Shown here piece after piece: positions 25,336-32,871 of a DNA stretch of 64,000 nt. Numbering within the stretch: the first letter of the stretch is position 1; the number at the start of each line of letters is the position of its first letter. Made by a program: the position numbers and the translations under genes. Source of the DNA: Escherichia coli (GTDB lineage Bacteria > Pseudomonadota > Gammaproteobacteria > Enterobacterales > Enterobacteriaceae); assembly GCF_022846255.1 (NCBI RefSeq), contig NZ_AP025682.1; one strand, given 5' to 3'. The notes under the pieces are model-generated. The model searched no databases, was not told the origin of the DNA, and worked only from the letters and a program-made list of their open reading frames with translations.

Positions 25336-25905
25336 GTGAGCCGATTCATCCCTGTCGAATTACACCATGCCAGCCGTCTGTTAAATCATGGCCCAACTGT
25401 CTTGATCACCAGTTTCGATGAGCAATCCCAGCGGCGTAACATTATGGCAGCAGCCTGGTCAATGCCGGTGGAGTTTGAACCGCCACGCGTGGCGATTGTG
25501 GTAGATAAATCGACATGGACCAGGGAGTTGATTGAACGTAACGGTAAGTTTGGCATCGTTATCCCGGGCGTTGCGGCGACTAACTGGACGTGGGCGGTGG
25601 GAAGTGTGTCGGGGCGTGATGAAGATAAGTTTAATTGCTATGGTATTCCGGTTGTGAAAGGTCCGGTGCTTGGTTTGCCGCTGGTCGAGGAAAAATGTCT
25701 GGCGTGGATGGAGTGTCGCCTGCTACCTGCAACTTCCGCGCAAGAAAAATACGATACGCTATTTGGCGAAGTGGTATCTGCAGCGGCAGACGCACGAGTA
25801 TTTGTCGAAGGCCGCTGGCAGTTTGATGATGACAAACTCAATACGTTGCATCATTTAGGTGCTGGCACGTTTGTTACCAGCGGCAAGCGTGTTACGGCAG
25901 GTTAA
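25336..25905 (+). CDS. yddH: flavin reductase-like domain protein
   Basis: 189 aa matching remembered YddH. Confidence 0.85.
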   Translation: MSRFIPVELHHASRLLNHGPTVLITSFDEQSQRRNIMAAAWSMPVEFEPPRVAIVVDKSTWTRELIERNGKFGIVIPGVAATNWTWAVGSVSGRDEDKFNCYGIPVVKGPVLGLPLVEEKCLAWMECRLLPATSAQEKYDTLFGEVVSAAADARVFVEGRWQFDDDKLNTLHHLGAGTFVTSGKRVTAG

Positions 25906-25908
25906 GCA

Positions 25909-26136
25909 TTACATGCTGTAACCGGGTTTCTTTATCAAAGCCTCCATTTGGGGCTCGACTTCGGCATCCCAGATAGCTTGCCAAGATTCTGGTTGAATCT
26001 GCTGTAGAGAAATGCTTATCGAGCTATCTTTACTGTTCAGATGGCGAATAATAACGTCGGTAATATCTGCAGCAAGTGCTGCTTTTTGTTGTTCGTCCAG
26101 TTCACGCGGAAAACATTTAATGTCTATGTGCGGCAT
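25909..26136 (-). CDS. pptA: tautomerase (4-oxalocrotonate tautomerase family)
   Basis: 75-aa product [16 protein letters not shown]... with the N-terminal Pro typical of tautomerases; start placed by codon arithmetic from the 88-aa track ORF. Confidence 0.85.
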
Positions 26137-26441
26137 GATTGTGCTCCTTTTGAAAGATGTCAGTAAAATTAACACACGTTGTGAATGTCGTGTGTCCGGT
26201 AATGCGTTTTTACGGCAATAATGCCTACTTGAAATTGTACATATTTGTACTACACACTTTTAAATAAAGCGCCAATGAAAACGTTAACTTGCAGAATATA
26301 TTCTTCGCCAACATGCCATTAAGAAAACATCAAGTTCCCGGCTTGCCAATTTGTTAACGCCCATTATAGTTATTCTTGCCCTCACTAAAAATTTTCATCC
26401 GTAATTACCCCCAATAAAAATCCATTCTGGAGACGCTTAAG

Positions 26442-28418
26442 ATGCAGCTTAATCATATCGTTAAAAGTCTGCTAATAACGGGATTATTCACCACCAGTTC
26501 TTTACCTCTCCTCGCGGCGGAAGCTCCTAAAGACGCCACCGCAGCCACGCAACAAGCAAACAATTTACTCTACAACCAGTTGCCGTTTGCCGATAACACT
26601 GACTTTACTGATGCCCATAAAGGTTTTATTGCCCCTATCCCTCAAGACGTGATTAAGGGCGAACAAGGGAATGTTATCTGGGATCCACAACATTACGCTT
26701 TTATCAAAGAAGGCGATAAAGCCCCTGATACGGTGAATCCGAGTTTATGGCGTCAGGCGCAACTGATAAATATCAGCGGGTTATTCGAAGTAACTGAAGG
26801 TGTCTATCAGATTCGCAATCTCGATCTATCAAATATGACCATCATTGAAGGCAAAGAGGGTATTACCGTCGTTGATCCCCTTGTTTCAGCAGAAACAGCC
26901 AAAGTGGGTATGGATCTCTATTACAAAAATCGCGGCAAAAAACCGGTAGTGGCGGTTATCTATACACACAGTCATGTCGATCACTACGGTGGTGTTCGTG
27001 GCGTAATTGATGAAGCTGACGTTAAATCAGGCAAAGTTAAAATCTATGCGCCAGCCGGATTTTTGGAGGAAGCCGTTTCCGAAAACATCATGGCTGGCAA
27101 TGTTATGAGCCGACGAGCCAGTTATATGTATGGCAACTTATTGAAACCTGATGTTAAAGGCCAGGTGGGGGCTGGACTGGGAACGACTACTTCAGCAGGA
27201 ACAGTCACGTTGATTGCTCCTACTAACTACATCACCAAAACCGGACAAATAGAAACTATTGACGGGTTGACTTATGATTTCCTGATGGCGCCAGGTTCTG
27301 AAGCGCCTTCTGAAATGCTGTGGTTTATTGAAGAAAAGAAACTGATCGAAACCGCTGAAGATGTCACGCACACCCTTCATAACACCTATTCGCTGCGTGG
27401 GGCTAAAATTCGCCAACCGCTGCCGTGGTCAAAATATATTAATGAAGCTCTCAATTTGTGGGGTGATAAAGCCGAGATTATTCTCGCTCAACATCACTGG
27501 CCAACCTGGGGCAACGATAACGTGGTCAAACTGCTTAAAAGCCAGCGTGATTTGTATCGTTACATCAATGATCAAACTCTGCGCATGGCTAATCAAGGGA
27601 TGACCCGTGATGAAATTGCCGCAAACTTTAAACTGCCCTCTTCACTGGCTAACACCTGGGCGAATCGCGGCTATTACGGTTCGGTAAGTCATGACGTGAA
27701 AGCAACTTACGTGCTTTATCTCGGCTGGTTTGATGGTAACCCCGCGACGCTTGATGAACTGCCGCCAGAAGAAGGCGCAAAAAAATTCGTCGAGTATATG
27801 GGCGGTGCTGATGCCATTTTACAGAAAGCCAAACAGGATTATGACCAGGGTAATTTCCGCTGGGTTGCCCAAGTTGTTAGTAAGGTGGTGTTTGCCGATC
27901 CAAACAACCAGGCAGCGAGAGATCTGGAAGCTGATGCGCTTGAGCAGTTAGGCTATCAGGCTGAATCTGGGCCGTGGCGTAATTTCTATCTCACTGGTGC
28001 ACAGGAATTGCGTAATGGCGTACAAAAATTACCAACACCAAATACTGCCAGCCCAGACACCGTGCGTGCGATGACGCCGGAGATGTTCTTTGATTATCTT
28101 GCCGTCCATATTAATGGTGAGAAAGCGGCAGATGCCAAAACCGTGTTGAATTTCGATTTTGGTGAAGATGGCGGCACCTATAAAGTGGAGCTTGAAAATG
28201 GTGTTCTCAATCATACCGCTGGTGTAGAGGCTTCGGATGCTGATGCCACTATCACTCTGTCTCGTGATGTATTGAACAAAATTGTACTGAAAGAAGAGAC
28301 GCTGAAAGAAGCCACGGCCAAAGGAGATGTCAAAATTACTGGCAATGCGGAAAAACTCAACGAGCTGTTAGGTTATATGGATAATTTTGAATTTTGGTTC
28401 AATATAGTGACACCATAA
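26442..28418 (+). CDS. secreted alkyl/aryl-sulfatase-like metallo-beta-lactamase-fold hydrolase
   Basis: 658 aa with N-terminal signal peptide (..SLPLLAAEAP) and metal-binding motif HSHVDHYGG; SdsA1/YjcS-like architecture; not at this position in K-12 as I recall. Confidence 0.75.
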   Translation: MQLNHIVKSLLITGLFTTSSLPLLAAEAPKDATAATQQANNLLYNQLPFADNTDFTDAHKGFIAPIPQDVIKGEQGNVIWDPQHYAFIKEGDKAPDTVNPSLWRQAQLINISGLFEVTEGVYQIRNLDLSNMTIIEGKEGITVVDPLVSAETAKVGMDLYYKNRGKKPVVAVIYTHSHVDHYGGVRGVIDEADVKSGKVKIYAPAGFLEEAVSENIMAGNVMSRRASYMYGNLLKPDVKGQVGAGLGTTTSAGTVTLIAPTNYITKTGQIETIDGLTYDFLMAPGSEAPSEMLWFIEEKKLIETAEDVTHTLHNTYSLRGAKIRQPLPWSKYINEALNLWGDKAEIILAQHHWPTWGNDNVVKLLKSQRDLYRYINDQTLRMANQGMTRDEIAANFKLPSSLANTWANRGYYGSVSHDVKATYVLYLGWFDGNPATLDELPPEEGAKKFVEYMGGADAILQKAKQDYDQGNFRWVAQVVSKVVFADPNNQAARDLEADALEQLGYQAESGPWRNFYLTGAQELRNGVQKLPTPNTASPDTVRAMTPEMFFDYLAVHINGEKAADAKTVLNFDFGEDGGTYKVELENGVLNHTAGVEASDADATITLSRDVLNKIVLKEETLKEATAKGDVKITGNAEKLNELLGYMDNFEFWFNIVTP

Positions 28419-28432
28419 ATTTACTGCATACC

Positions 28433-28455
28433 GGGCAGGTATCCTGCCCTTTTTT
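28433..28455 (+). terminator. Rho-independent terminator after the sulfatase gene
   Basis: gggcagg-tat-cctgccc hairpin followed by a T6 run. Confidence 0.6.
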
Positions 28456-28464
28456 GGTTAAAAA

Positions 28465-29562
28465 ATGGCTGAACGAAGAAAAACGCATCACTCATGGAAA
28501 ACCCGCCGCGATATGGTTATTCGCGGCATGACGATTAGTTTGCCATGGTTTGCTTTTATCAATGTCAGTTTTGCATTGATAATTTTGCTGCGCCGTGTTC
28601 TGTTTAATGACCTTACTCCACCCTGGTTAAATGAAAAAAGCCTTATACATTCTATTGATATATCTGCAACGGGTATTCTGCTGATTTGCAGTGGTTTACT
28701 ACTCATCCCTCGGCAAAAAACATTACCTATCCAGGTGCTATTAGTTGCCCTGAGCCTGCTATGGTCATGGTGTAGTTATCACTTTATTGCGTACTGGACG
28801 CTGCAGTTTGCTTATCCACTATGTGTATTATTAATGCTTAGTGGCGTTGTCGCACTTTATTTCCATACCCCATCATTGCTCGCATTTGTCATTCCCTTAT
28901 GGTTCACCACTCCAATAGCGAGTCTTATGCTTAATCAACAGATCAATATTCATTTTGCTGTTGTATGGTGTATTTTTTCACTGGCGCTATATGGTGGGCG
29001 ACTCATTTTGTTACGTTGGTTTGAAGAAGCATGGGTACAAAACAGTTATAACAACCAGTTAATTAATCGCCTTGATGCATTAGCACATCGCGATCCTTTA
29101 ACTGGGATAGCAAACCGACGTGCAATGAACAGTATCTTACACGACGCGATGGATAACGGCGGGTCATTTGCTCTTATTATGCTGGATGTCGATTTTTTTA
29201 AACGTTACAACGACACTTACGGGCATCCTGCTGGGGATCGTTGTCTAATACAAGTTGCCGACGCTCTACAGCGTTCAACTCGCCAGTCGGAGGATGTTGT
29301 TGTCCGTTATGGTGGCGAAGAGTTTGCCATCATACTTTTTAATGCAACATTGCCGGAAGCAGAGACGGTAGCAGCCAGAGTGAAGCAAGAACTTAAACTG
29401 GCAGCTATCCCACATCAGGCATCTGCTGTTAATGCATTCGTTACGGTTAGTCAGGGGATTACCTGTTCTGCTCCCGCAAAAACGGCTGAACAAATTATTT
29501 CAGATGCCGACGCTGCGTTATACCGGGCGAAAGAAAGTGGGCGAAATCGATGGGCTTTATAA
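28465..29562 (+). CDS. membrane-anchored diguanylate cyclase (GGDEF domain)
   Basis: 365 aa: about 190-aa N-terminal region with several predicted TM helices, then GGDEF domain with active-site RYGGEEF; precise start codon uncertain (several in-frame Met). Confidence 0.8.
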   Translation: MAERRKTHHSWKTRRDMVIRGMTISLPWFAFINVSFALIILLRRVLFNDLTPPWLNEKSLIHSIDISATGILLICSGLLLIPRQKTLPIQVLLVALSLLWSWCSYHFIAYWTLQFAYPLCVLLMLSGVVALYFHTPSLLAFVIPLWFTTPIASLMLNQQINIHFAVVWCIFSLALYGGRLILLRWFEEAWVQNSYNNQLINRLDALAHRDPLTGIANRRAMNSILHDAMDNGGSFALIMLDVDFFKRYNDTYGHPAGDRCLIQVADALQRSTRQSEDVVVRYGGEEFAIILFNATLPEAETVAARVKQELKLAAIPHQASAVNAFVTVSQGITCSAPAKTAEQIISDADAALYRAKESGRNRWAL

Positions 29563-29589
29563 GCATTAGGGGACTGGACAGATTACGTC

Positions 29590-30328
29590 TCTCCTCGCTT
29601 AACAAGGGCTGACGGAGGGTAATAATTGTCTATAGCTATCTTCTTAGCGATGTCTTTCTGGTATCACATTGGATCGGTGCAATTATTTTTCCTTTAATAC
29701 CCATTATGTTAAGAAATTCAGAACCAGCTGTAATCTCATTGTTTTTTTCATTCGTCTTGATCTTCCAAGGAATCTGACTGTGCATTATTGAGAACACACT
29801 AATAACGTGAATCGCTCCCTTGCGACGACTCTTGTCATAAGAGTACCGGAGCGTTTTTCCATCAATTGCAATGACGTCTTTATCATCTGAAGAATGGCAG
29901 TCAAGCATCCAGTTAATAAAGCACTCATGAAATTTTTCAGGACTGATACAGGATACAACTCTGGCAATGGTATCGTGAACAGGAATACCATTATCAAAAT
30001 CACCATATTGCTTCAAAAAATCGAGATGTGTTTCCCCAAAATCCTCTATATCTTCCCAGCCTTCTGCACCCGAAATAACGACACAAATAGTCAACAGTAG
30101 AATATCCGATAATTTATGCTCCACTTTCCAGGCTTGTCTGTAATCGGGGATAATAGAAATATGTTCCATCAATTTTTTAAGTTCCATTTTGTTCTCCTTA
30201 ATTATGTAAAGAGTATTTGATCATGTATAAGCAATAAAAAACAGCTTTAGGTAATGAGGAATATCTCAATTTTTAAACATAAAATGCGAATTATTTAGTA
30301 CAAAAAAGCAGCGTTACGTGATCTTTCC
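29590..30328 (-). mobile_element. truncated, diverged ISAs1-family (H-repeat) element copy
   Basis: 183-aa ORF (29636..30187) is similar but not identical to the N-terminal part of the H-repeat transposase at 31727..32554, then diverges; its 5' flank (about 30190..30328) repeats 32560..32695. Confidence 0.6.
29636..30187 (-). pseudogene. ISAs1-family transposase, truncated copy
   Basis: N-terminal about 150 aa align with the second copy, C-terminal tail diverges and terminates early. Confidence 0.65.
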
Positions 30329-30348
30329 ATGGAAAAGAGAGTAATACA

Positions 30349-30364
30349 CTGATTTTTAACGCAG
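30349..30364 (+). promoter_or_regulatory. candidate LexA (SOS) box upstream of the symE-like gene
   Basis: CTG-N10-CAG (ctgatttttaacgcag) with AT-rich spacer about 65 bp upstream of the ATG; deviates from CTGT/ACAG at two conserved positions; K-12 symE is SOS-regulated. Confidence 0.25.
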
Positions 30365-30427
30365 ATTGCCAGTGCTACCAACACTGACAATCTGCTCACC
30401 ACAAGCAACTAACAGAGGTAGTTAATC

Positions 30428-30747
30428 ATGGCTGAACACGATATTACGCCAGAAGTCGCCATTTCCAAAACACAGCGCCGCTATAAAGTCGGCTATGTCA
30501 GAGCCCGCCACATAAACAGCAAACCACGTACTACTCACGACACCCCAGCCTGAACCTTAAGGGCGACTGGCTGAAAGAGGCCGGATTTGATACCGGACGG
30601 GGTGTCACGGTGAAGATTTCGGAGGGGTGCCTGACCATCATCGCTGACAGTGACGAGGTGCAGGAACTGCGGGAGGAACTTTATCAGGTTAAACAGGTGG
30701 TTAAGGGGATGCGGAACGGGATGTTTAGTGTGCTGAACGAGAATTAA
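30428..30747 (+). pseudogene. symE-like type I toxin gene (AbrB-fold), apparently frameshifted
   Basis: 41 codons from ATG 30428 (MAEHDITPEVAISKTQRRYKVGYVRARHINSKP...) end at TGA about 30551; the SymE core LNLKGDWLKEAGFDTGRGVTVKISEGCLTII... continues in the -1 frame to TAA about 30745; restoring one C near 30550 would fuse them. Confidence 0.6.
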
Positions 30748-30797
30748 ATAATAAAAAAGCCGGGGAGATTTAAAATCTTCCCGGCTTTCTTTATCAT

Positions 30798-31100
30798 CTA
30801 AAAAGGTAATAATCCTCTAATAGGAGAAAATTTTGTAATATCAATACCTTGTAATTTAAAGTAATTAAAAGCATCTTCTATATTGGAAAACGCACTAATT
30901 TCTTCAGTTGCATAATCTTCGAACACTTCCATTTTATTTTCTGGTATTTTGAAAAAATAGGTATTGTATTTTTCATCCTGTTTTTTAATGGCATATTGGA
31001 AAAAATAACTTTCACCATTTATTTCCTTTATCTCATCAAAACCTCTAACCTTACCATTCTCTATAGCAACAATTAATTTTTCAATAGACAAATCAACCAT
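30798..31100 (-). CDS. putative immunity protein for the upstream toxin-like ORF
   Basis: 100-aa acidic, low-GC ORF; its ATG overlaps the stop of the upstream ORF (ATGgtTGA), the usual toxin-immunity arrangement; no sequence family recognised. Confidence 0.45.
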   Translation of the reverse strand: MVDLSIEKLIVAIENGKVRGFDEIKEINGESYFFQYAIKKQDEKYNTYFFKIPENKMEVFEDYATEEISAFSNIEDAFNYFKLQGIDITKFSPIRGLLPF

Positions 31101-31440
31101 CTATATCTATCCTCACCATTGTCCCATCAGAACGTTTAATATTTATATGAGGCAAAGAACCATGCCCTGTGCCTTTATGGTCATCATGACCATATACACG
31201 ACCAGTATTAGAATCAATAGGGTAATCTTTCCTATAACGGACAGTACCATCTCTTTTCTTAAATTGTTCCATCTTATGTTTTTTTCTAATACCGGCGGCA
31301 TCCTGCGAACTGATCCCTCTTACTTTTTGAGCATCAGGAAAGGCCTCCATCAATAAATCATGGGCTTCCTGTTTTGATTTAACTGTGACAACGGTTCCTT
31401 GAGGCCCCAGGGCAAGATTACGAAAGCCCGCTCCCCGCAA
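31093..31440 (-). CDS. putative orphan polymorphic-toxin C-terminal domain (3' fragment of an IS-disrupted gene)
   Basis: Track ORF begins inside the ISAs1 end with a TTG; first ATG gives [10 protein letters not shown]... (about 31350); C-terminal His-rich motif [21 protein letters not shown] is reminiscent of HNH/beta-beta-alpha-Me nuclease toxins; low GC. Confidence 0.4.
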
Positions 31441-32695
31441 GGACTGACGCCAGATAGTTTCTGTCCATGGCTGCTTTTCGCATCTTACGTCTTAACCCTG
31501 CCTTGAATACCTTATCATTCGTCAAAATATTAATAGCGATGTGCCGTATCCCTGAAAATAATTCTGCTGCATTTCCTCTTCTTATTTTGCAGTCGTCTTC
31601 ATTCATTACCACGTCCAGACGCCAGTGCAGCTTATTCTCCACGTGCCAGTGGTTTCGGATTGCTGTGGCGAACTTCTCTGCGGTTAAATCAGCAGAACTG
31701 ATATAATATCTGACCGTCATTTCTGGCTATTTCTTTTGTTCTGCTATTATGGACCGAAAGGAGACTGCCACGCATAATTTCTTCAGTCCTTTCCATTCAA
31801 ACGTGAAATCAATAAGTTCATCAGGGACATCGCAAACAATATGAAGACGGATTTCTTCTCTGCCGTGACTTTTTTCACTAATTGCGTAACTGTCATGCTC
31901 TGGATTATTCAATTCTTTCAGCGGAAATTTTTCCTCGAAGGCTTTATTTAGCCGCCCCTGGTTTCCTTTTACAGCGAATAAATAATCACCTCCCTGTTTT
32001 TGTATCTTCTCTGCAATATCTTTCTGGCAACCCATCGCATCAGTTGTGATGATTTTTCCTTTAATATCCAGCATGTTAAGAAGTTCAGGGATAGCTGTAA
32101 TTTCATTGGATTTCTCATCCGTCCTGATCTGTCCGATGACCAGACTGTGCATTGTTGAGAACGCACTAATGACATGAATCGCTCCCCTGCGGCGACTCTT
32201 GTCATAAGAATGTCGGAGCGTTTTTCCATCAATTGCAATAACGTCTTTATCATCTGAAGAATGGCAGTCACGCATCCAGTTAATAAAGCACTCGTGAAAT
32301 TTTGCAGGACTGATACAGGATACAACTCTGGCAATGGTATCGTGAACAGGAATACCATTTTCAAAATCACCATATTGCTTCAAAAAATCGAGATGTGTTT
32401 CCCCAAAACCCTCTATATCTTCCCAGCCTTCTGCACCAGAAATAACGGCACAAATAGTCAACAGTAGAATATCCGATAATTTATGTTCCACTTTCCAGGC
32501 TTGTCTGTAATCGGGGATAATAGAAATATGTTCCATCAATTTTTTAAGTACCATTTTGTTCTCCTTAATTATGTAAGGAGTATTTGATCATGTATAAGCA
32601 ATAAAAAACAGCTTCAGGTAATAAGGAATATCTCAATTTTTAAACATAAAATGCGAATTATTTAGTACAAAAAAGCAGCGTTACGTGATCTTTCC
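31400..32695 (-). mobile_element. ISAs1-family (H-repeat) insertion sequence
   Basis: Transposase reading frame of about 379 codons (31418..32554) with the [26 protein letters not shown]-terminal signature; upstream boundary set where the two copies' flanks diverge (after ...gtgatctttcc). Confidence 0.7.
31418..32554 (-). pseudogene. ISAs1-family transposase, split by a frameshift near 31720-31727
   Basis: 275-aa N-terminal ORF (31727..32554) and 100-aa C-terminal ORF (31418..31720) are contiguous in different frames. Confidence 0.7.
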
Positions 32696-32871
32696 CTGGT
32701 TATCGCTGTTCTTTCCCCTTGACCAGGCAAATATTTTTCATTATGGATCCATACCTTGCTATAATCAATTGTATTCTCAAAAATCGATCTGGCCAATGTT
32801 AATTCACCAGATGTCATTCTCCTTAATGACATATCCTTTCCCCTGGAAATAATATCTTTCAGATAAAACAC
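32662..32871 (-). pseudogene. 5' fragment of a gene truncated by the ISAs1 insertion; N-terminus resembles DUF4157-type domains
   Basis: 69-aa ORF whose last about 12 codons are encoded by IS-end sequence; motif LARSIFENTIDYSKVWIH resembles the E..fG.DfS.VRVH N-terminal signature of DUF4157 (a recollection, not verified). Confidence 0.35.

Follow-up and report, generated by a model that had tools for sequence, protein, structure and literature searches.

The alkyl sulfatase locus

The window, i.e., the whole stretch of 64,000 nucleotides that was analysed, originates from Escherichia coli (RefSeq assembly GCF_022846255.1, contig NZ_AP025682.1) and contains the narZYWV-yddE-nhoA-yddH-pptA locus of this species. 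The site described here lies between yddH/pptA and ansP and comprises the following features:

26343..26370, + strand: candidate sigma-70 promoter, TTGCCA-16 nt-TATAGT, 10/12 consensus matches, 72 nt 5' of the ATG
26429..26432, + strand: Shine-Dalgarno sequence GGAG, read from the sequence 9 nt 5' of the ATG
26442..28418, + strand: alkyl sulfatase gene, 658 aa plus stop, identified by its open reading frame, Pfam domains, PDB homologues and RefSeq product
26442..26516, + strand: Sec signal peptide predicted from sequence features and hydropathy, aa 1-25, with the cleavage site near LLA-AEA
26517..27602, + strand: catalytic metallo-beta-lactamase (MBL)-fold domain, holding H176, H178, D180, H181, E287, E306 and H351 as well as Y230 and G247
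26967..26993, + strand: metal-binding motif HSHVDHYGG (HxHxDH), aa 176-184, with HSHVDH at aa 176-181
27603..28019, + strand: alkyl-sulfatase dimerisation domain, aa 388-526 (PF14863)
28041..28415, + strand: SCP2-like C-terminal domain, aa 534-658 (PF14864, PF02036)
28433..28455, + strand: intrinsic terminator, GGGCAGG-TAT-CCTGCCC followed by TTTTTT, starting 15 nt past the sulfatase stop codon
28465..29562, + strand: MASE5-GGDEF diguanylate cyclase gene with a GGEEF active-site motif (Pfam MASE5, E=5.3e-44; GGDEF, E=1.4e-48)
29637..30306, - strand: truncated ISAs1-family element bounding the gene pair, found by blastn to K-12 ydcC and annotated as a transposase pseudogene by PGAP in identical genomes

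The sulfatase reading frame in the ORF list is intact and starts with ATG. Family, fold and likely chemistry of the enzyme are established knowledge; the gene is annotated in RefSeq as 'alkyl/aryl-sulfatase' (WP_001176573.1, annotation by PGAP in 99.9%-identical genomes) and UniRef relatives carry the name 'Linear primary-alkylsulfatase'; the gene encodes an ordinary zinc-dependent alkyl sulfatase. The candidate promoter is a consensus match only and not significant on its own, with 13 such sites in the region compared to 9.5+/-3.0 in shuffles, and the counts of promoters and terminators across 25800-30300 showed no excess over the shuffled expectation. The individual terminator is nevertheless argued to be real, not by region-wide counts but because of its position, its stability and its positional conservation: the stem (28433-28449) has 7 bp, six of them G-C pairs, with -13.5 kcal/mol and z=-2.39, and GC-rich hairpins were found at the equivalent position in orthologous loci of other genera. 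The ATG of the GGDEF gene follows only 10 nt past the T-run, leaving no room for a promoter in between; PGAP places its start 48 nt later, at 28513. In these respects the locus agrees with the original prediction, which had described the 658-aa reading frame, a terminator of its own and an adjoining GGDEF gene.

Domain architecture, metal site and export

By domain content and homology the protein is a type III (SdsA1-class) alkyl sulfatase. Pfam assigns Lactamase_B (PF00753, E=3.9e-19) to aa 128-226, Alkyl_sulf_dimr (PF14863, E=5.2e-63) over the full length of its profile (1-139 of 139), Alkyl_sulf_C (PF14864, E=1.3e-44) over 1-125 of 125 and SCP2 (PF02036, E=3.8e-07) to the C-terminal region, and this three-domain architecture is far above chance. 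The best matches among solved structures are all type III alkyl sulfatases, and they extend from end to end: 7tl5 with 1192 bits, SdsAP (4nur) with 1035, YjcS (4pdx) with 699, Pisa1 with 645 and SdsA1 with 635. With 7tl5 as a gap-free match of 79.7% identity across the entire mature chain, the fold can be regarded as effectively known.

The zinc ligands were mapped from the numbering of SdsAP (PMC5426288). All seven listed ligands are kept, with the expected residue at every mapped position, and E287, E306 and H351 occupy the positions of SdsAP Glu303, Glu322 and His367. In alkyl sulfatases the binuclear zinc site has glutamates in place of the class B beta-lactamase ligands His196 and Cys221, plus a distal histidine (PMC5426288). 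Moreover, SdsAP Tyr246 and Gly263, whose mutation was shown to abolish SDS hydrolysis (PMC5426288), are kept as Y230 and G247. The original prediction had rested on the HSHVDHYGG motif and a presumed SdsA1/YjcS-type arrangement of MBL, dimerisation and SCP2-like domains, and had proposed an HMM or structure-based comparison with these enzymes as a check; the motif is present at aa 176-184, each domain was found by Pfam, and SdsA1 and YjcS are both among the end-to-end matches.

In the N-terminus, MQLNHIVKSLLITGLFTTSSLPLLA followed by AEA, a basic n-region precedes a hydrophobic core and a cleavage site of the A-x-A-like kind. Crystallised homologues have mature chains that start at the equivalents of aa 26-29: the chain of SdsAP (4nur) begins at the position corresponding to aa 26, and the alignment to 7tl5 starts from aa 29. 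For SdsAP the signal peptide was taken off for expression (PMC5426288). The protein had been described beforehand as secreted: the predicted signal peptide points to export, and in E. coli its location would most likely be the periplasm.

Distribution in E. coli

Among 5426 complete E. coli genomes, 439 (about 8%) have an intact sulfatase gene and 436 have the MASE5-GGDEF partner gene. MS 69-1 is one of the carrier strains. The single match of the E. coli gene to a 'plasmid' was discarded, the 4.9-Mb record being a mislabelled chromosome. yjcS is near-core in the same set (5344/5426), and by alignment the sulfatase gene is a second, divergent paralogue of it (49% identity). With yjcS present in 5344 genomes and the sulfatase gene in 439, most carriers must have both paralogues by the pigeonhole principle. 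The carriers, about 8% of the complete genomes, have a second type III sulfatase besides the near-core YjcS, and in these strains phenotypes concerning SDS or alkyl sulfates, as well as yjcS knock-outs, may behave differently.

Ancestry and loss at the yddH/pptA-ansP site

The patchy presence of the gene is attributable to loss and not to gain, as judged from the nested breakpoints in E. coli genomes that do not carry it, which mostly abut ISAs1. The breakpoint classes abutting ISAs1 lie at the window-equivalent positions 25965, 26186, 26225 and 26503-26511, a fifth class was found at 26369, and one of the breakpoints is inside pptA. Furthermore, 88 genomes retain the first 62-70 nt of the sulfatase gene, which in the one inspected are fused to ISAs1, and 2375 genomes are of the K-12 type. 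Beyond E. coli, at least eight genomes of Citrobacter have the sulfatase gene at the syntenic site, without the GGDEF gene and with a nucleotide identity of 76-80% compared to 75-82% for the flanks, and E. whittamii and two other diverged Escherichia lineages have the sulfatase-GGDEF pair there, again with flank-like divergence. Read from synteny, divergence and breakpoints, the sulfatase gene has long resided at the yddH/pptA-ansP site and was deleted by most E. coli, mostly next to the ISAs1 elements of the RhsE region.

The competing explanation, that the sulfatase and GGDEF genes are a two-gene island recently acquired in this strain, draws on several properties of the locus: the low G+C content of both genes (45.9% for the sulfatase gene and 43.7% for the GGDEF gene, with about 52% in the flanking core genes), the presence of the pair in such a small fraction of E. 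coli genomes, the ISAs1/Rhs debris alongside, the joint travel of both families in Salmonella lambdoid prophages and on a plasmid, and close relatives of the sulfatase (83-86% identity) on plasmids and prophages. Against this, the G+C content of the sulfatase follows the host genus (46%, 53% and 55%), and the truncated ISAs1, where the Rhs/ISAs1 rearrangement zone running towards ansP begins, lies on one side of the pair only, next to the GGDEF gene, and does not bracket it. The properties of an island, i.e., absence from syntenic relatives, a divergence departing from that of the flanks and mobile boundaries on both sides, were not found for the pair. A recent acquisition is very improbable and was rejected on the grounds of the synteny, the flank-like divergence and the deletion scars represented by the 88 remnant genomes and the nested breakpoints. 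In its simple form, the idea in the original prediction that the sulfatase gene may have come in as cargo along with the GGDEF gene does not survive the Citrobacter synteny without the GGDEF gene, the flank-like divergence and the nested deletions; some support is left for the notion of a two-gene unit, on a deeper time scale and not as recent cargo, since the pair recurs in Enterobacterales, in Salmonella prophages and on a plasmid. Horizontal movement of the sulfatase clade is real, the low G+C content of the gene would fit a foreign origin long ago, and an ancient transfer to this site is conceivable. The locus illustrates well how an ancestral gene pair is eroded by nested, mostly ISAs1-abutting deletions at the RhsE region, and cautions against reading low G+C content, patchy distribution and a nearby IS element as acquisition.

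The MASE5-GGDEF neighbour

The sulfatase and the MASE5-GGDEF gene are a recurrent linked pair across Enterobacterales. Of 79 species-level loci of this sulfatase clade, 13 have a MASE5-GGDEF gene as a neighbour. The arrangements include tandem genes (at two identified chromosomal sites), a same-strand position upstream and convergent genes, and the divergent arrangement occurs in Salmonella prophages and on a plasmid.

The neighbour is not DgcX: DgcX is a MASE4-GGDEF protein whose gene adjoins lambdoid prophages at attB (PMC4287979; PMC10459773), and the neighbour is a MASE5 protein encoded at pptA-ansP. Literature searches returned only unrelated engineering work for MASE5 and only irrelevant Vibrio work for GGDEF proteins together with alkyl sulfatases in E. 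coli. We presume that the neighbour may be the 'DgcY' of Povolotsky & Hengge 2016; a search for this name returned unrelated proteins only.

The recurrent association raises the thought, which we put forward tentatively and regard as rather doubtful, that the periplasmic sulfatase and the downstream cyclase form a conserved functional module. In such a module, the membrane-embedded MASE5 domain might sense alkyl sulfates, the long-chain alcohols produced from them or a perturbation of the membrane, and the cyclase would then raise c-di-GMP to bring about protection by aggregation or biofilm formation as the detergent is cleared by the sulfatase. The intergenic terminator could act as an attenuator resulting in a high-enzyme, low-cyclase ratio. 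As a precedent, earlier reports describe an SDS-triggered aggregation in P. aeruginosa that depends on the diguanylate cyclase SiaD (PMC6107682; PMC4768041). The adjacency is a testable hint at what the orphan sensor domain MASE5 detects.

Proposed activity and alternatives

Location, substrate range and physiological role are inferred here. The sulfatase would carry a Sec signal peptide when synthesised and act in the periplasm as a homodimer. Its MBL-fold domain is predicted to bind two zinc ions via H176, H178, D180, H181, E287, E306 and H351, which would activate a water molecule or hydroxide for the hydrolysis of a sulfate monoester to the alcohol and inorganic sulfate, and the dimerisation and SCP2-like domains would form a hydrophobic channel accommodating the alkyl chain. 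Linear primary alkyl sulfates like SDS would be the most likely substrates, and the enzyme might serve in the detoxification of amphiphiles or in scavenging of sulfur or carbon.

An assignment to a different MBL subfamily, such as a true beta-lactamase or RNase, had been named at the outset as the result of domain analysis that would speak against an alkyl sulfatase, and the HxHxDH motif is indeed common to the whole MBL superfamily. The subfamilies considered here were true beta-lactamases, RNase Z/J and glyoxalase II. NCBIfam models for class B beta-lactamase, RNase Z and GloB do match weakly, with best scores of 29.4 bits for bla_class_B_core (cut-off 100), 18.3 for RNase Z (293) and 17.7 for GloB (201), yet all such matches, including SoxH-like ones, remain at 15-29 bits compared to cut-offs of 100-750 and span only about 45-85 residues round the metal motif, whereas the sulfatase-specific dimerisation and C-terminal domains are matched over their full length and the protein has the glutamate ligands characteristic of alkyl sulfatases. 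These subfamilies were rejected, and the chance that the protein belongs to one of them, or that it is an inactive relic despite an intact reading frame with all ligands kept in hundreds of genomes, is practically negligible. A more serious alternative, although still an unlikely one, is a type III sulfatase with another specificity, i.e., for secondary alkyl sulfates with inversion as in Pisa1, for aryl sulfates or for a natural sulfate ester of the gut. The family displays contrasting specificities on a single scaffold (PMC6107682): for SdsA, YjcS, SdsAP and SdsA1, hydrolysis of SDS or of primary sulfate esters was reported, and the substrates of Pisa1 are secondary alkyl sulfates (PMC6107682). 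The homologues from which the substrate would be deduced share at most 69% identity with the protein and vary in specificity between primary and secondary alkyl, the match to Pisa1 still reaches 645 bits, the PGAP name is hedged as 'alkyl/aryl', and as YjcS already handles SDS in E. coli, the divergence of its paralogue might extend to the substrate. On the other side, the protein is far closer to the primary-alkyl sulfatase SdsAP (69%) than to Pisa1, the two residues needed for SDS hydrolysis in SdsAP are conserved, and the TLHN..Y.LRGA segment agrees in the alignment with SdsAP, SdsA1 and YjcS and differs from Pisa1, whose specific version of this region is absent. The markers E306, Y230 and G247 favour the primary-alkyl over the sec-alkyl subtype as indications and not as proof of specificity; a Pisa1-like specificity is disfavoured by the ligand at position 306, which is Glu here and Asp in Pisa1, and by this neighbouring motif.

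Taken together, we hold with considerable confidence that the gene encodes an SdsA1-class zinc alkyl sulfatase, probably periplasmic, for which SDS-type substrates are likely, and that it is an old resident of its site deleted by most E. coli.

Comparison with characterised alkyl sulfatases

The closest solved structure, 7tl5, shares 79.7% identity with the protein over 630 ungapped residues, i.e., over the full length, and was deposited as 'Lactamase_B domain-containing protein' without a functional name. YjcS of E. coli K-12 (PDB 4pdx, 'linear primary-alkylsulfatase'), which was reported to be active on SDS (PMC6107682), has the family, architecture, ligands, species and, as predicted for the protein here, a signal peptide in common with it, but the identity is only 49% and yjcS resides elsewhere, in the alsK-yjcS-ytcA-mdtNOP locus. 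SdsA1 of P. aeruginosa (PDB 2cfu), the founding type III member, has the same architecture and a binuclear zinc site with glutamate ligands; it is more distant (635 bits), and sdsA1 belongs to an SDS-catabolic context in Pseudomonas, whereas no alcohol-oxidation genes flank the E. coli sulfatase gene. The inverting Pisa1 of Pseudomonas sp. DSM 6611 (PDB 2yhe, 4av7) shares the fold and the domain order and has aspartate where this protein, SdsA1, SdsAP and YjcS have glutamate.

Of the characterised enzymes compared, the most similar is SdsAP from Pseudomonas sp. S9, a primary alkyl sulfatase that is thermostable. Both proteins are 69.4% identical over 633 ungapped residues and have the same three domains, the seven zinc ligands, the tyrosine and glycine for SDS hydrolysis and, as predicted for the protein here, an N-terminal signal peptide in common. 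They differ in the length of the signal peptide (about 25 aa predicted here and 41 in SdsAP) and in the host, which is enteric here and a pseudomonad for SdsAP.

Organization and distribution of the sulfatase locus in E. coli

On the E. coli chromosome the sulfatase gene is found in the order narZYWV-yddE-nhoA-yddH-pptA, sulfatase gene, MASE5-GGDEF diguanylate cyclase gene, ISAs1/Rhs debris and ansP. It is an uninterrupted open reading frame (ORF) with an ATG start and a GGAG sequence located 9 nt upstream of it. The features of the locus are:

26442–28418 (+), sulfatase gene, 658 codons
28433–28449, terminator hairpin
28465–29562 (+), MASE5-GGDEF gene
29637–30306, truncated ISAs1-family copy
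30798–31100 and 31093–31440 (−), small ORFs without Pfam match
31406–32715, near-complete ISAs1-family copy with interrupted transposase

The terminator postulated in the original prediction was recovered: 15 nt past the stop codon, a 7-bp hairpin with 6 GC pairs is followed by TTTTTT (−13.5 kcal/mol; z = −2.4 versus shuffles). Counted over the whole region, terminator-like sites are no more frequent than expected, but this one is well positioned. GC-rich hairpins are present at the same position on the 3′ side of orthologues in Escherichia, Atlantibacter, Enterobacter, Lelliottia, Pseudenterobacter and Citrobacter. The two small ORFs between the ISAs1 copies (29637–32715) probably encode the orphaned tip of an Rhs toxin and the matching immunity protein; the window lacks the 4.2-kb Rhs core of strain MS 69-1.

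The sulfatase is already annotated in RefSeq ('alkyl/aryl-sulfatase', WP_001176573.1 in strain MS 69-1) and a crystal structure of an 80%-identical protein exists. Among 5426 complete E. coli genomes, 439 carry the full-length sulfatase gene, 436 the GGDEF gene, 88 a sulfatase remnant consisting of the first 62–70 nt alone, and 2375 the K-12-type ISAs1/pptA junction. Since yjcS, encoding a 49% identical paralogue, is present in 5344 of these genomes, most carriers must have two type III sulfatases. The sole E. coli 'plasmid' with the sulfatase gene in PLSDB (NZ_CP134663.1, database match H92) is a 4.9-Mb chromosome filed as a plasmid; a genuine plasmid copy from E. coli is absent from these collections. 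The sulfatase alleles are at least 99% identical in 338 genomes and about 96.5–98% identical in roughly 100, and the adjoining GGDEF gene is at least 99% identical in 439. In CUVET19-1993, the sulfatase gene shows 97.9% and the GGDEF gene 99.5% identity, and such allele mismatch suggests that recombination breakpoints may lie inside the pair.

Acquisition or ancestral residence

It had been proposed that the sulfatase gene may be cargo acquired together with the GGDEF gene. The low G+C content (sulfatase gene 45.9%, GGDEF gene 43.7%, flanks about 52%), the patchy distribution and the adjacent insertion sequence (IS) indeed resemble an acquisition. However, the comparative evidence points otherwise. 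The G+C content of the sulfatase gene tracks the host genus (Escherichia 46%, Citrobacter 53%, Enterobacter 55%). Eight Citrobacter genomes, among them C. sedlakii and C. portucalensis, have the sulfatase gene at the same site, by yddH/nhoA/narV; it is followed by yncG-ansP-yncE in C. sedlakii and by other genes before yncG in C. portucalensis, and none of these eight genomes has a GGDEF gene at the syntenic site. The nucleotide identity of the sulfatase gene to the window is 79.6% for C. sedlakii and 76.5% for C. portucalensis, matching the 75–82% of the flanking core genes. Moreover, E. whittamii and two further diverged lineages of Escherichia have the pair at this position, with a divergence similar to the flanks, and in two of the three ansP directly follows the pair without any IS.

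In E. coli genomes lacking the pair, homology to the window ends at five different points between the window-equivalent positions 25965 and 26511.

Breakpoints in E. coli genomes without the pair (window 25909–26520 compared with loci L002, L003, L099, L100 and L101)
26503–26511, within the sulfatase gene: ECONIH1-type, ISAs1 adjoins
26369: PSJ-42, other genes (SymE) adjoin, ISAs1 not directly
26225: K-12-type, ISAs1 adjoins
26186: BL21-type, ISAs1 adjoins
25965, within pptA: U14A-type, ISAs1 adjoins

In the four ISAs1-bounded classes the element is fixed and the endpoints are variable, which argues for IS-adjacent deletion from a gene-containing state. Next to the GGDEF gene of the window, ISAs1 is present as a truncated copy, and it does not bracket the pair. 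The lack of the pair in most E. coli is accounted for by the five breakpoints. Synteny, flank-like divergence and nested breakpoints are best read as long residence at this site with subsequent repeated loss in E. coli, so that the proposed acquisition gives way to a probably ancestral pair that was mostly deleted in this species.

Association of the sulfatase with a MASE5-GGDEF cyclase

Scanning one genome per species resulted in 79 loci with sulfatase relatives of at least 76% identity. That the two genes belong together gains some support, on a deeper time scale, from recurrent pairing (13 of the 79 loci, the partner being absent from 66) and from mobile copies; their joint acquisition at the E. 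coli site does not. In ten loci, from Escherichia, Atlantibacter, Enterobacter, Lelliottia and Pseudenterobacter, the MASE5-GGDEF gene is located immediately downstream on the same strand; in the tandem loci that were measured, the spacer is 47–77 nt long and includes the hairpin. Three further loci differ in arrangement, all with MASE5 and GGDEF confirmed by Pfam: the cyclase gene precedes the sulfatase gene on the same strand in Pantoea rodasii and an Enterobacter sp., and the two genes are convergent in Serratia proteamaculans. The pair occupies at least two chromosomal contexts, in the Enterobacter group between tynA and feaB, where Leclercia carries the sulfatase gene alone. Loci with a MASE5-GGDEF neighbor are L011, L012, L013, L019, L021, L022, L028, L037, L039, L047, L052, L057, L074, L093 and L095.

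Outside the E. coli site this recurrent pair is mobile. In a lambdoid (Gifsy-like) prophage of Salmonella enterica, an 85%-identical sulfatase is cargo of the nin/Q region, between the replication and Q-antiterminator modules, usually with a divergent MASE5-GGDEF gene, and the same divergent block is found on a 263-kb plasmid of serovar Sandiego (Salmonella loci: L011 4474–7980; L012; L019 3475–6980; L016 967–2946). The sulfatase gene also occurs without its partner, in one prophage record and on several Enterobacterales plasmids.

In several species the sulfatase clade is represented by two paralogues, one usually sharing about 85% and the other about 79% identity with the query (L054/L075, L059/L076, L038/L086, L025/L081, L053/L064, L062/L092, L065/L089, L068/L080, L074/L084, L078/L098, L090/L095, L093/L097); in Citrobacter sp. 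R56 and Citrobacter sp. Awk 4 both copies lie within about 8 kb. In Enterobacter hormaechei, in whose assembly the locus occurs on two contigs (L013, L014), a 23-codon remnant (L013 9519–9587) is located about 380 nt downstream of that genome's own MASE5-GGDEF gene. It shares 78% identity with the C-terminal end of the E. coli-type cyclase, a hint that the partner gene may have been replaced or duplicated.

The cyclase evolves much faster than the sulfatase: cyclases paired with sulfatases of about 86% identity share only about 50%. In the window, the GGDEF ATG (28465) is located 10 nt past the T-run of the terminator and no promoter-like site lies between terminator and ATG, suggesting that the cyclase is probably expressed by read-through. 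The start assigned by PGAP corresponds to 28513 (350 aa). The longer ORF from 28465 (365 aa) includes an N-terminal W-x-x-R-x-D-M-V that is also conserved in the partner cyclases of Enterobacter, Salmonella, Pantoea and Atlantibacter, and the upstream start thus looks more likely. For P. aeruginosa, c-di-GMP-dependent aggregation in response to SDS was reported (PMC6107682). The pairing, an association from few independent events, is suggestive of a functional coupling of sulfatase and MASE5 cyclase, and this possible link is the mildly novel thread of the analysis.

Domain architecture, proposed mechanism and relation to known alkyl sulfatases

The predicted 658-aa protein with HSHVDHYGG (residues 176–184) was confirmed, as was its architecture of metallo-β-lactamase (MBL), dimerization and SCP2-like domains.

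Pfam domains of the sulfatase
Lactamase_B: aa 128–226, E = 3.9e-19
Alkyl_sulf_dimr: aa 388–526, E = 5.2e-63, profile matched full-length
Alkyl_sulf_C: aa 534–658, E = 1.3e-44, profile matched full-length
SCP2: E = 3.8e-07

The N-terminus, MQLNHIVKSLLITGLFTTSSLPLLA followed by AEAPKD, is organized like a Sec signal peptide, and the mature chains of crystallized homologues begin at residues aligned to positions 26–29. The enzyme, originally termed secreted, is predicted to be exported and is more cautiously described as probably periplasmic.

A search of all solved structures returned type III alkyl sulfatases as the only strong matches, all aligned end-to-end.

Structure matches of the sulfatase
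7tl5, uncharacterized deposit: 1192 bits, 79.7% identity
4nur, SdsAP of Pseudomonas sp. S9: 1035 bits, 69.4% identity
4pdx, E. coli YjcS: 699 bits, 49% identity
4av7/2yhe, Pisa1: 645/637 bits
2cfu, SdsA1: 635 bits

Domain analysis did not assign the protein to another MBL subfamily: class B β-lactamase, RNase Z and glyoxalase II scored 15–29 bits against cut-offs of 100–750, matching the metal motif alone. Homologues of 84–93% identity are widespread in Enterobacterales (Citrobacter, Serratia, Scandinavium, Rahnella, Buttiauxella, Enterobacter, Yokenella, Klebsiella and Salmonella, among others) and are named alkyl/aryl-sulfatase or 'Linear primary-alkylsulfatase' by their sources.

Members of sulfatase group III have an MBL-like domain at the N-terminus and an SCP2-like one at the C-terminus; SdsA, YjcS, SdsAP and SdsA1 hydrolyze SDS or primary sulfate esters, and C–O bond cleavage with inversion was described for SdsA1 and Pisa1 (PMC6107682). 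Based on this family knowledge, the protein would be an exported, dimeric, binuclear-zinc hydrolase in which water activated by the metal splits a linear alkyl sulfate into alcohol and sulfate, the dimerization and SCP2-like domains accommodating the alkyl chain. Its likely substrates would be SDS-like primary alkyl sulfates, and its physiological role may be detoxification or sulfur/carbon scavenging.

In SdsAP, zinc is bound by His192, His194, Asp196, His197, Glu303, Glu322 and His367, and mutation of Tyr246 or Gly263 abolishes SDS hydrolysis (PMC5426288). Transferred by the ungapped alignment offset, these residues correspond to H176, H178, D180, H181, E287, E306, H351, Y230 and G247, with the expected residue at all positions. 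All sequence-testable defining features of a type III alkyl sulfatase are present, and domains, zinc ligands and structure matches support the SdsA1/YjcS-type assignment. The markers of the primary-alkyl subtype are also present: position 306 is Glu in the sulfatase as in SdsA1, SdsAP and YjcS, whereas it is Asp in the secondary-alkyl enzyme Pisa1, and the adjoining THTLHNTYSLRGA segment resembles the primary-alkyl enzymes.
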